Part shown: positions 39,001-45,000 of the stretch, one piece after another | How the letters are laid out: every line of letters starts with the position of its first letter | Position numbering within the stretch: the first letter of the stretch is position 1 | Source of the DNA: Escherichia coli | Lineage (GTDB): Bacteria; Pseudomonadota; Gammaproteobacteria; Enterobacterales; Enterobacteriaceae | Direction: 5' to 3' (one strand) | DNA length: 64,000 nucleotides | Assembly (NCBI RefSeq): GCF_002854065.1 | Contig: NZ_CP024152.1 | Made by a program: the position numbers

Positions 39001-42000
39001 GTATATTGAAGATACAGCTCTGAAATTTACCCGGCCTGATTTCTGGAACAGCGGTTTTTTTGCTGATACACCTGGAAAAATGGGGTTGCTTGCGGTTTAT
39101 ACGGGTACTGTTTTCATATTATCTCTTCCGTTAAGTATGATATATATTCTTTCTGTTATTATAAAAAGGCTGTCTGTAAGATAGACAGCCTGTCTTATAT
39201 TTTATTTAAATACCCCAGAACTTATTCGCTTTTTCCACAAGCGATTCATCAATCAGCGCACCGGTGACAGCCATCAGTAAACCATACCCGATAATGCCTA
39301 AAGCGCTTCCGGTAAGAATACTGAAGACCAGTGCCACAAGAGCCGTTGCGGCATTGCCTGCTATGATGGTTTCTGTTTTAACAAAAAGAGGACGCCAGTT
39401 CTCTGTCCGGACAGCCTTACCAAACTCAGTGATCCAGTCAGCAAGACTTGTAAATTTTCCTGCATATCCCAGTCCCCGACTGAATCTGTTCAGATTAGAC
39501 GATATATCAGACAGCTTCACAGACTCAAGGGCTGCGGCAATCGCTGCACGATCTTTTGCATTAATTTTTTTGTTAATGTCAGCCCGGTACTTTTCATACG
39601 TTTTTAATGCCTCTTCAACATTACGTATTTTCTTCCCTTTAGCCTGCCCGGCCATCTCTCTGGCTAACTGCTCAGCTTTTGCACCATATTTTTCTGAAAC
39701 TGATTTCAGGAACTCTGTTGTGAAATTAATTGCGTCTTTCGTTGCCTTCAGTTCATCCTGTTTTCTTTTCTCTTCCGCTATCTTCTGATTGATGCCGGAA
39801 AGCTGGTTACGGATATTCTCTTTTTCCTTCAACAGGGCATTAAGAGCGTCATTTGCATGCTTTTGCTCATTTGTTCTGGCACTGAGGTTATTTCTCGCCG
39901 AATTTACCGCAGATTCAGCAGAGGTGATTTTATTTCTGGCATCAAGCAATCTTTGCCGTAACTTATCCCATTCAGCAACTTCAGCATTATAAATTTTCTT
40001 GTCACCTTCCACATCCTCTGTCACCACCGGATTCCGGTCATTCAGAATATTGCGTTTATAGTCCAGACCGGAATGGCTCAGAAGATAATTCAGGTTTGCA
40101 CGGTTATCGATGACTGCGCTGGTTGTGATTTTTATCGTACCGGCAAATCTCGGATCACCGCTCACAACAATAGAATGATTTGTTGATGAACGCCCCGGGA
40201 ATTTTTCAGGGGAAACTATCGTTTTGCCGTCAGGCGTGTTTTTCTGTTGCGTCAGCTGTTGTTCAGCTCTGGTTAATGCATTACGGGCCGTGTTAAGCGA
40301 TTCCGTCACTGAACTGAGTTTATTCCGGGCCTCTGAAATGGCCCTGTCATTCCGTGTCTGCTGCCCGAGCAGACGGGCCTGTTGTGCATCAAGAACGGCA
40401 AGGGCTGCCCCGCCATTTTTTTCCAGCTCTGACAACCGGGTGTCCAGAATACCTTTTCTGCGCTCGTATTCAGCAAGCATATCAGCGGCCTTCTTGTCTG
40501 CGTTCTGCGCATCCTTCTGCCGTTTTTCAGCCTGTTCGATTAACGACCTGGCCTCCCGGGGAGATATACGAAGAGAATCAGCATCAGCAAACAGCATCCG
40601 GCTCTCTGTATGCAGCCGGAGGGCGTCATATCCGGCGATTTCAGTACGGAATCCGTATTCTCTCAGCTCTGCCTGCAGGAGTCTGAACTCCTGTCGTGTA
40701 ATATCAGCGGCATCTGCGTTTCCGGCACGGAGTGTTTTCAGTGTGTTTTCATCTTTTTCCCTTGCAGCAATCGCCGCAGAGAGGCGTTTTCCGGCTTCAG
40801 TACGCTTATTCTCATTCTCTTTCTGCTGCGCGCTGAGCGTGTTTTTGTACGCTGTGATTTCCTTGTCCCTTTTTTCGATATCACTTCGGGTTGGGGAATC
40901 ATCAACCCACTCGTTTCCGCCCCAGATGGTTTTGTTCCCGAAGGAACTCCATGCAGGCGGGGTACCATGAAAGACATCGACACGTGGAGGGTTTACATAA
41001 ATATCAACGGCCATAATTTCATGGCCATCTGAATCATACCCCAGCGATTCTGCACCGGGATTTGTAATACGTACAGGGTCAGACATTCGGTATCTCCTTC
41101 ATCCTCTGAGGAAAACAAATGAATTAACTGCTTACGCATATGGATACATATACAGTATTAATTTATTAAGGAGAAAATGGCATGTCAAGATTTGATGATA
41201 GTGATTATCATTAACATGAAGTGATGTTACACCGTTCAGAAAGCCTGCTGACGCTGTGGCAGCATCACAGTCTGGGTATTCTCTGGTGCAATACAAAAAC
41301 CGGACTTTCCCGTAACAACAGACAATGTTACGGGAAAAGTTACAGAACTGAGCCACAAAATATCTCAGTACCTGAGATGCATAAAAACACCGTACATATG
41401 TTTCTTAAAAGGGGGATGATCGTTATCCAGCCATTTCGGTGGATCGGTATGCAGAACACCAATCTGCTTCATGCCGGTATGCTGCCTGGATTTTCTCGCG
41501 CAGTAATCACTGTCTTCATATCCCATCGTTTCGATGACCACTCTGGCCGTCTTTCCGTCAGGAGCCCTTGCTGTGACAATGAAATCCGGCAGTACATATT
41601 TCTTTTCACCATTAACATAAACTTCTGTATCAAACAGGGGCCTTTCCAGACTTAATTCCGGCGTACCTGGCTTTCTTTTAAGCCAGCTGGCCACATTCAG
41701 AAGAGCAGTGAGCGTGTTTCGTTCCAGTTTGCTGTCCACAGGCACCGGACATGTCAGTTGATAAAGAGCATGAGCATACCCTTCACTGCAGATGATTCTG
41801 CCATCGGCACTCCGGCAAAAAGCAAGAATAACCCAGTAAGGGGGACGTATTCCGCCCTGCGCTTCACCATTAATACTGATCCCCCGCACAGGTCTGATGA
41901 CCTGAATATTACCGTTCGCCCAGTGAATTTCCACAGCATCACGACAGATGTGCTGCGCCATAAAAATCTGAAAGAACATATGCTTTCTTCTGGCAGGCCA

Positions 42001-45000
42001 GTGTCGTTCTGAATTCTCCAGCGTTTCCATTAACCGCTCCTGAGACCTTTCAGACATTCCTGGCCGGAAATGGATAATTTCAGATAAGGCTCTTCCCCGA
42101 ATATACTCCTGCTGTAGTGTAACCTGCCGTATGGCATCAAGACACTCACGATAATTAGTCCGGATACGGGGATTAGCCAGGGAATCCAGTTTATTCAGCC
42201 CTGCATCTTCAATAAGCGACAGGAGTAAACGGCCAAGGCGCGGACGTTTCTTGCGAACGGAGGAGCGCTCACCATTATGGTAAGCAGAGCGGGCCTGCAG
42301 TCTGATAACAGAATTACTGTCATCAGGTGGTAAAAAGTTTCTGTAATTTATACGGGTGCTAACGGGATGCCGGCTTGCTCCGAAGGATGTTTCCTCTTCA
42401 TTTCCGGATAACTGACGATACATGGGGCATTCAGGTGCATGCTCATGATTAAAACTGGACAGATAAAGAGTACCCGTATTGTTTTTAAGAGCAGCAAAAT
42501 TCATGGCCGGCGAATCTCCCGGAATACAGTCACACTGTAACCATGCATCATACTCACGCATTTCCCGGAGAAGATCATTGGCCAGGTTATGTTGTGCCAT
42601 GGTTGCTGGCCTTTTCAGTCCACAGACCGTCTTTACTGCAGTCTCTTCCTCACTGCTAAGCTCCCGAATCACTTTGCCCCGGGGATTCTTCTTTACAAGT
42701 ATCATTGGCATAATGAAAGCACTCCTTATGTACATGCTTAAACAGTAAGTAAAATATACAAAGAACCCCCCATGAAACAAAGGCAGAGATGAACTGTGCG
42801 CCCCGATATCTTCTTCTGATATCCTTTCAAATGAATTGTTTTTATTTATATCATGACAACATTAAAGTGAGAGAATATATCAACCATGTTTCTGTCAGGG
42901 TTCAGTAGAATATCAATTCGACTGTCACGCCATAACTGTAACTACCTCGAGTATAAATATTCAGAGAATGGACTTATTAGCCATGAAAAATCACCTGATG
43001 GGAAATTTACTAATTTATGGATTGTGATATTATTAAAGAGTAAAACCAGCCAGCCGAGGTATTTATGGGAAAAAATCAGGAAGAAAGGAAAACTCCCGTC
43101 ATTGTGGTGAAAAAACGTCGAACTTTTTCGCCACCGTCCTTATCCGAAAAAACAGATATTATCGCACCTGTATTTACTGAACAGACGGCAGAATCAGCCC
43201 CCGCCGGAATAAATTCATCTGCCGTCGAAACACATATCCCCGAAGCGCCAGCCAGGAAGAAGAAAAAGAAAAGACACCGTTTTCCACGTCCCTCCCACTG
43301 GACCCGTGAGTATACTCACGAGTGCGTGGAAAAAATAAAGGCCCTGTTTCCTCATCTTCGTGCTGAAGGTGGTGGATTTATTCCCCTGAAAATTGGCATA
43401 AACAATGATATTTCGGCATTTCTGGCAGAACACCCGGAGACAGAACTGACCATGGACGAATGGCTCTGTGCAGTGTCCTGCATCACATCCCGCCGCGTAT
43501 ATCTGCAGCGGACAGCTGTCGCCGGCGTCCCACGTTATGGCCTGGATGGTCACCCCAAAGGGCAGGTCTCAGACTCTGAAGCACAGAGTGCCGGTCGCAG
43601 ACTGGCGACATTAGAACAAAAGTGGCTCAGGATGCAGGCACAGCAGGAGAATATTTCTGGGCAATAAACACTCCTGATAACAGGTGGACATTACGTATCA
43701 GAAAAAATGGGAAGAGAATGTTATGTGTGATTCAGAAGCGGAGAAGATTTTATTCATCCTAAATAAACATGAACGGGCATACAGACGCCTGATCCCCGTA
43801 TATATTTTTTTAGCTATAGTATTATGGATTTTACCTATTCTCCTGATTATATACCTGTATTTCTGTATAGTTGACAATGAGTTTCTCAGAATCGGTTTCT
43901 GTATTGCATGGACAGCATACTACTTTCTTTCGCTTTTCAAGTATTTTGTAAAATACTTCTTTCCTCTCGATCGTGAAGATTTGCTTAACCTGATGGATCT
44001 CGCCAAAGATTCTCCTGATGCGAAACAGGAGCTTCTTGAGCGTCTTTTGTCCGGAAAAAGAATGACCGGGCGGGATGAAATGGATATCAAGCGCATTCTA
44101 AAAACAAAGGAAGCACTTGATAACATCAGGAATTTTATTGATAAACAGCAGTTAACGAATAATGATACTCCGAAGAAAAGCACGGTCCCAAATGAAGATA
44201 AAAAAGGCATAAGATGATGATCACAGGAAATGGAATAAACACTGTAACTGTCAATGGAAAAGTGAAACACATCACAGAACTGGATTATATAACACTTTGT
44301 TTAGAGTGGACAAAACTACGAGAGGAAAACAATCGTCTTTATGAAATTAATAACAAGGCAAACAGAGGATGGCGTGGTTTCATCCTAAGATTGATAGGGG
44401 TTAACCTGCCAGATAAAAGGACTGAGTTTACACAACGTCTCTTGTTGACGCGCAAAATTTCGGGTTCGGTCATGAAAAAGTAACATATTCTAGGCTGGAA
44501 CAGACCAATTTTGCATTCGCCGTCCAGGAGTTTGAGGGGAAAGTAGTCAGTGTTTTACGCTCAGTCAGGGAAAGTGTGCAATGATAAATGACACGAAAGG
44601 AATCGTAGTACATGGGCACCGCGATTCAATATTCAAGGAAAAAACAATACAGCAATGTACTTGTTCTGTTTCTATTATTCTGGCGATTTCAATAAAGGCA
44701 CTTGCTCGCGCTCTGTCATTTTCTGAAACTCTTCATGCTGCATTTCGATTTTCCTTCTAAGATCATAACTCGCATACCTGTTCTTTTTATGTATATCTAT
44801 ATCTATTTTTGTGACGAGTTCAAACCACAATGTTCGCACTCCCCATGCAGCGTTATGAAACATTTCCGCAACGGCTATAGAGTCTGTATTAACTGCTTCA
44901 GTCATGTAGTCGCTAATACGTTCAGCGGTAATTTTCGTTATTTCATCGTAATTCATTTTATCTCCTACAAGATTATTTAATGGAATGCAAAATATCTGGC

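Follow-up and report, generated by a model that had tools for sequence, protein, structure and literature searches.

YagA of IncI1 plasmids, a candidate Bax1-type PD-(D/E)xK nuclease of conjugative elements

Introduction

Among described protein families, DUF1173 (PF06666) is the closest in architecture to the subject of this study, YagA, a protein of 448 amino acids encoded by yagA (41365..42711, minus strand, including the stop codon) in a 64,000-nucleotide stretch of Escherichia coli DNA from contig NZ_CP024152.1 of assembly GCF_002854065.1 (referred to as the window, in which all positions are given). According to Laganeckas et al. (2010), DUF1173 proteins consist of ~400 amino acids with an N-terminal Cys-X-Cys-Xn-His-X3-5-Cys motif and a C-terminal domain related to PD-(D/E)XK, are remotely linked to DUF790, and were judged to have no PD-(D/E)XK active-site signature (PMC3045609); this was the only paper found on the YagA-type architecture. 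DUF790 is the Bax1 nuclease family. In the nuclease domain of AfBax1, the metal site consists of E275, D305, and E318, and cleavage is impaired or lost in the mutants D305A of this enzyme and D301A of its Sulfolobus counterpart (PMC7293015).

yagA is a long-annotated, named gene of the backbone of IncI1 colicin plasmids, and its function is uncharacterised. In papers, its function is given as unknown, or it figures as the site of ISEcp1-blaCTX-M or Tn3 insertion (PMC4541600, PMC8004404, PMC7491321), and no functional study of plasmid yagA was found in the literature, in agreement with the initial annotation of the window, which had called the protein uncharacterised. The gene name and a fold assignment for the architecture, published in 2010, were already known; an argument for an intact Bax1-type nuclease site, a probable OB (oligonucleotide/oligosaccharide-binding)-fold domain, and figures for the restriction of the family to conjugative elements, in which a traD-X-relaxase position (X, the YagA-like gene) recurs, are added here.

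Results

A predicted Bax1-type nuclease domain

The AlphaFold2 model of YagA, made with a 35-sequence alignment, had a predicted local distance difference test score (pLDDT) of 84.2 and a predicted template modeling score (pTM) of 0.80, with disorder at residues 135-152 only. The C-terminal domain (residues 326-425; 41437..41736, minus strand) was modeled as a restriction-endonuclease fold, that of the PD-(D/E)xK superfamily. Foldseek with the YagA model returned nothing from the PDB at E ≤ 0.001, and local scans of the protein against Pfam, NCBIfam, PADLOC, and PHROGs gave no significant family. The two faint library matches, both at residues ~365-415, were DUF790 and a restriction-endonuclease model: the DUF790 score was 10.5 bits for YagA and 15-23.9 bits for its relatives, below the gathering threshold of 28.8, and the NCBIfam Bax1 equivalog models gave 13-17 bits against a cut-off of 500. 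A PDB sequence search with the single YagA protein yielded noise only. When a profile of the family was compared with 177,635 PDB sequences, Bax1 endonucleases were the only credible matches: AfBax1 (6p66_B) was found at E = 0.0028 with the full-length profile and at E = 4.4e-4 with that of the nuclease domain, and five of the seven PDB sequences listed for the latter were Bax1 proteins.

Conservation was counted throughout in 67 diverse representatives, 20-57% identical to YagA. The nuclease domain contained 17 positions conserved in at least 75% of them, in comparison with 4-7 in each other region. D/E326, S327, E330, and P358 were found in all 67; K357, D376, G397, and K407 in 66; and E394 and Y403 in 65. 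The candidate active site comprises E330, D376, E394, and K407, together with S327, K/R357, and Y403. P-D376-F of YagA paired with P-D305-F of AfBax1, E394 with E318, Y403 with Y327, and K407 with K331, and S327-x-x-E330 on the first helix is likely the counterpart of Bax1 motif I. The window protein itself has Arg at position 357 (codon 41641-41643; LERPLFD versus LEKPLFD), a conservative replacement of Lys beside the invariant P358.

The Lys residue expected two positions after the Glu is missing in both proteins (E-I-A-G in Bax1, E-T-M-G in YagA): Met396 occupies the canonical (D/E)xK position, and K407 lies on the following helix, as in Bax1. Since the active Bax1 lineage shares the missing Lys, Met396 would not be a sign of decay. 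We conclude from these residues that the active site of YagA appears intact and of the Bax1 type. The initial annotation had taken VVIETMGYEDSDYCARK (residues 391-407) for a possible degenerate nuclease core; it was right about the core, and the degeneracy has to be given up, because this is the best-conserved part of the family, with the Bax1 motifs PDF...E-x-x-G...Y-x-x-x-K. The near-invariance of E330, D376, E394, and K407 likewise disfavors the view of 2010 that the fold has no active-site signature, and would correct it.

N-terminal region

A putative zinc-binding region (residues 57-95; 42427..42543, minus strand) contains W57 and C60-x-C62...H91-x3-C95. C60, C62, and H91 were found in 67 of the 67 representatives and C95 in 64, and these four residues probably bind Zn. 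The Cys/His motifs pointed out by the initial annotation, WLQCDCIPGDSP (residues 57-68) and HEHAPECPMY (residues 89-98), are therefore real, being part of this near-invariant set of putative ligands. A basic linker predicted to be disordered follows (residues 131-155, with RKKRPR; 42247..42321, minus strand; pLDDT <50 at 135-152); residues 131-160 contain 8 Lys/Arg versus 2 Asp/Glu, and their sequence is little conserved. The linker, accompanied by a helical segment, connects the putative zinc-binding domain with a β-rich, OB-fold-like domain (residues 241-325; 41737..41991, minus strand). When residues 1-325 were modeled separately (pLDDT 75.9), the structural matches were a uniform list of OB folds from proteins binding single-stranded DNA (ssDNA): RPA70 DBD-C (5.3), Cdc13 OB1, Teb1 OB-C, Stn1, and PriB, and further RPA32/14, SSB, MCM-N, and RecJ. 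The tool did not report the aligned query residues, and these matches most likely correspond to the modeled β-barrel at ~245-320. The domains are predicted at the level of fold, and the overall architecture has no solved relative.

Comparison with known families

With 448 amino acids, C60-x-C62-x28-H91-x3-C95, and a C-terminal restriction-endonuclease fold, YagA has the architecture of DUF1173, and its relatives share the remote link of DUF1173 to DUF790; one cluster of homologues bears the UniRef name 'DUF1173 family protein'. No match to PF06666 at E ≤ 1 was obtained for YagA or 26 relatives, including alphaproteobacterial ones, with a Pfam copy in which this model may be absent. The 99%-identical cluster P0001 and ~100 homologues carry the label PF27227 "Endonuc-like_C", which was taken from precomputed annotation, the model being newer than the Pfam copy scanned; by this label and its identity to the annotated yagA of ColIb-P9, YagA is assignable to PF27227 and to the named YagA family. 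The protein, which could not be placed by eye in the initial annotation, accordingly has a name, a Pfam label, and a DUF1173-like architecture, while the family itself is still uncharacterised.

YagA differs from Bax1 in its N-terminal parts (a zinc knuckle and an OB-like barrel versus XPB-binding and Cas2-like domains) and in location (bacterial plasmids versus archaeal chromosomes). Bax1 is the partner of the XPB helicase in archaeal nucleotide excision repair, whereas no XPB-type helicase was found among the neighbors of YagA or of the relatives inspected; some of these relatives abut a relaxase-helicase instead. Minimal PD-(D/E)xK nucleases of the VRR-NUC, Hjc, and Vsr types are single-domain or dimeric proteins that possess the lysine of the canonical (D/E)xK motif; they showed no sequence-level match to YagA.

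Family size and distribution

Relatives of YagA formed 115 clusters at 90% identity in Enterobacterales. Clustered at 50% identity, the matches of an exhaustive search with E ≤ 1e-3 came to 531 representatives (255 with E ≤ 1e-10), many of them full-length (400-460 amino acids, 20-33% identity). A profile search of a 5.8-billion-protein database with a broad alignment recovered, for the most part, the Enterobacterales set again; the distant members carried no informative names, and cluster look-ups returned 'hypothetical protein' alone. No fused domains were found when the longer family members were scanned.

By tblastn, the family was detected in 1,437 PLSDB plasmids, 89% of which were predicted to be conjugative; 241 of these matches were below 60% identity. 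With a distant query, 155 plasmids were found, of which 52% were conjugative and 20% mobilizable; they came from Sphingomonadaceae, Rhizobium, Serratia, Yersinia, and Ralstonia, among others. No match was obtained in 50,697 phage records. A genome scan with a tighter alignment gave 27 loci, adding contigs of Acetobacteraceae, Dyella, and Rhizobium; it was made with one peptide pattern only, and the taxonomic picture is partial. One of its loci, in a metagenome-assembled genome of Collinsella sp. (JAIJJM010000080.1), scored identically to the IncI1 protein and most likely represents an IncI1 plasmid contig from Enterobacterales that was wrongly binned with an actinobacterial genome.

Two positions of the gene recurred. 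In the one, its neighbors were genes of replication or partition: repZ in IncI1 (~4 kb away), Rep3 in plasmids of Pectobacterium and Kosakonia, ParA and a tyrosine recombinase, a replication initiator and a PRTRC/ParB cassette, or ParA and umuDC. In the other, it lay inside or abutted the transfer genes. A metagenomic contig had the order traD-X-TrwC relaxase, in which X (8001-9314) starts 12 nucleotides after traD and overlaps the start of the relaxase gene by 7 nucleotides, and plasmid II of Legionella fallonii the order traD-X-small open reading frame (ORF)-MobF relaxase (X at 5995-7332); these are unrelated F-type/MOBF elements, both with the YagA-like gene between traD and the relaxase gene. 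Elsewhere, X was within a tra cluster (DsbA-X...SSB-T4CP-TrwC; T4CP, type IV coupling protein), adjoined a relaxase gene in another element, adjoined T4CP and virB genes in Rhizobium pRLG203, or stood beside an F-type tra cluster in Sphingomonas. One element had the arrangement integrase-X-topoisomerase III. The family therefore lives on conjugative plasmids and probable integrative elements.

No conserved partner emerged when 120 ORFs lying up to three genes from the homologues were scanned with Pfam (BLAST clustering and single-sequence phmmer markers were too insensitive for neighbors across lineages), and we regard the YagA family as a stand-alone gene because its flanking ORFs show none. 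In six loci of Acidiphilium and relatives (L015, L016, L018, L019, L024, and L026), an ATPgrasp_ST-family gene was located upstream of the YagA-like gene; the same lineage has a conserved gene of ~430-447 amino acids with no Pfam match downstream of it, and a conserved unknown gene of ~860 amino acids and a DNA methylase gene nearby. This neighborhood may be a lineage-specific operon.

Gene call and occurrence of IncI1 yagA

The 448-amino-acid ORF and its good Shine-Dalgarno sequence, both described in the initial annotation, were confirmed: the gene is on the minus strand, for which the annotation had given no value, and AAGGAG (42722..42727, minus strand) stands 10 nucleotides before the ATG codon. 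The ORF listing also contained a longer version started at TTG, up to 42780. The N-termini of homologues coincide with the ATG at 42711 (MPMILV versus MAMKLV), and the 448-amino-acid form is therefore the right one. The ORF is no product of chance. Its DNA shows 100% identity to that of yagA in ColIb-P9 (NC_002122.1; WP_001132032.1, product "protein YagA"). It matched 1,206 PLSDB plasmids, of which 1,145 were predicted to be conjugative; nearly all of the 1,206 came from Escherichia, Salmonella, or Shigella. The complete gene was present in 966 records, ~20% of IncI1 records carried just part of it, and truncated clusters of the family were plentiful.

Relation to the colicin gene

As the initial annotation had noted, yagA and the colicin gene (39206-41086, minus strand), which is located downstream of yagA, have the same orientation. 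Directly after the yagA stop codon is an intrinsic terminator (41305..41338, minus strand) with a 13-bp stem followed by a T-run; the free energy of the RNA fold was -19.2 kcal/mol (z -5.35), equaled by none of 200 shuffled sequences. Downstream of this terminator is the colicin promoter, TTGACA-17-TAAATT (41188-41160), overlapped by CTGTATATGTATCCATATGCGTAAGCAG, which we read as a degenerate tandem LexA-box arrangement; such boxes are typical of colicin promoters. yagA thus appears to be transcribed separately from the colicin gene. The co-occurrence check that the initial annotation had proposed was made in PLSDB: the two genes were contiguous in ~609 records, against 966 with a complete yagA, and both yagA-only records, in which the match stops at the colicin promoter, and colicin-only records were seen. 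None of the sampled relatives (25-55% identity) had a colicin neighbor. Because a terminator and the colicin gene's own promoter intervene and each gene occurs alone, the linkage is synteny within a lineage and no functional unit, and the connection with colicin implied by the initial annotation was not borne out.

IncI1 surroundings in the window

The IncI1 backbone around yagA contains repZ (~4 kb from yagA), the yacA/yacB toxin-antitoxin pair, a 3'-5' exonuclease gene, fopA, yagA, the colicin gene, and the immunity gene. fopA (a ProQ/FinO-family gene, also yafB; 43065-43667) is divergent from yagA. The 353-bp intergenic region between them (42712-43064) is AT-rich (GC content 0.35), and a simple promoter scan of it found promoter-like sites on the plus strand, for fopA, and none for yagA. 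The immunity gene and the 3' ~0.5 kb of the colicin gene, encoding its C-terminal end (38849-39750), had no match in ColIb-P9, the remainder being 99% identical, and the immunity ORF is 111 amino acids long versus 115 in ColIb-P9; the window seems to carry a colicin Ia-type killing and immunity module, not colicin Ib, on the IncI1 backbone. A perfect LexA-box consensus, CTGTATATGCATACAG, was found at 30727-30742.

Discussion

We tentatively propose, at a confidence somewhat short of calling it probable, that YagA is a stand-alone, metal-dependent DNA endonuclease of the backbone of conjugative plasmids and integrative elements. In this proposal, E330, D376, and E394 would bind Mg2+ and, with K407, catalyze phosphodiester hydrolysis, while the OB-like barrel and the zinc knuckle would select single-stranded or branched DNA (single-strand/duplex junctions, flaps, and bubbles), as Bax1 does; by this analogy and the predicted barrel, a preference for ssDNA or junctions is likely. 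The substrate would be the element's own DNA, namely the single strand passed on in transfer, with its conversion, or intermediates of replication and recombination; such a role is favored because several lineages have the gene in operonic coupling with the coupling-protein and relaxase genes and others have it adjacent to replication and partition genes. YagA would be a non-essential accessory factor with its own transcription unit and no part in colicin production: the partial genes in ~20% of IncI1 records, the abundance of truncated clusters, and the insertions in epidemic plasmids indicate that yagA is not essential.

Several points weigh against a nuclease acting on the element's own DNA. 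DUF1173 was judged to have no active-site signature, the canonical Lys is replaced by Met396, and the catalytic role of K407 is proposed by analogy with Bax1 only; the pairing of E330 with E275 comes from a weak colinear match to one Bax1 homologue (DSSLER, 8gy8_A); and no experiment on any member of the YagA family was found in the literature. IncI1 yagA lies near repZ, outside the transfer and leading regions, and plasmids with a disrupted yagA still spread, ISEcp1-blaCTX-M being inserted at yagA in otherwise successful plasmids (PMC4541600), so that a role in transfer cannot be essential. A few neighborhoods also point elsewhere: GmrSD_N and RelA_SpoT-domain genes near the homologue of Dyella kyungheensis (11531-13578 of locus L017), a Hachiman HamA and helicase pair near that of Sphingomonas pNXO2 (10308-14595 of locus L041), and one further relative adjoining a restriction endonuclease gene.

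These neighborhoods suit the main competing explanation, in which YagA is a plasmid-carried nuclease of defense or competition that cuts incoming DNA of phages, or of rival plasmids arriving single-stranded through conjugation, and so protects the pair of host and plasmid; we consider this unlikely, though a serious contender. PD-(D/E)xK nucleases are the commonest effectors of defense systems, and an OB fold would be well suited to a nuclease that attacks DNA entering as a single strand. IncI1 yagA stands in a variable accessory segment with the colicin/immunity pair, a DUF4238 gene, and a toxin-antitoxin pair, and its frequent disruption fits an accessory gene. IncI1 plasmids also change phage type, although the paper cited for this credits ibfA (PMC8004404). 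On the other hand, PADLOC-DB 2.0 gave no match (0 families at E ≤ 1), the phage records searched contained no member of the family, and the tight position between traD and relaxase genes in several lineages is unusual for defense genes. There is, moreover, no conserved methylase, sensor, or immunity partner, which leaves the discrimination of self from non-self unexplained if YagA serves defense.

The remaining explanations are much less likely. That the fold is catalytically dead and YagA a DNA-binding regulator, or an accessory factor of partition, replication, or the relaxosome, is improbable: the description of DUF1173 with no signature (PMC3045609), Met396, and the adjacency to replication and partition genes in many plasmids would fit it, whereas the three acidic residues and K407 were found in 65-67 of the 67 divergent members, in the best-conserved region, and Bax1, which has no canonical Lys at the same position, is an active nuclease. 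A transposase or integrase remnant, such as a TnsA-like endonuclease subunit, is a very improbable identity for YagA. Similarity to TnsA is that of the generic fold common to all PD-(D/E)xK enzymes, there was no transposase or integrase match in Pfam or NCBIfam and no tnsB/tnsC-like neighbor, and the protein is full-length, conserved, present in 531 clusters, and provided with its own N-terminal domains. Such a remnant, or membership in a characterized family, is what the initial annotation had named as refuting its view; neither was found, the family being known yet uncharacterised. A functional part in the colicin module (regulation, release, or processing) deserves least credence of all: yagA stands immediately upstream of the colicin gene in the same orientation, and the two are contiguous in many plasmid records, but a strong terminator and a separate promoter stand between them, many plasmids have yagA and no colicin gene or the reverse, and no sampled relative has a colicin neighbor. 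This last reading is effectively refuted by the distribution.

A bolder version of the endonuclease proposal, which we regard as speculative and unlikely, is that YagA and DUF1173-like proteins form an unrecognised class of endonucleases of conjugative elements, the plasmid counterpart of archaeal Bax1. By means of the zinc knuckle and the OB fold, they would recognize junctions between single strands and duplex, work alongside the coupling protein and the relaxase-helicase, and either process the transferred strand or destroy rival incoming strands, as a nuclease-based plasmid exclusion.

IncI1 plasmids are major vehicles of extended-spectrum β-lactamase (ESBL) and AmpC resistance genes, and yagA is among the commonest genes of their backbone, being found in more than 1,200 sequenced plasmids. 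It is neither an accessory of colicin nor a new kind of system. For a protein that has been carried as a "hypothetical protein", the present results provide a concrete hypothesis on DNA processing or competition in conjugation.

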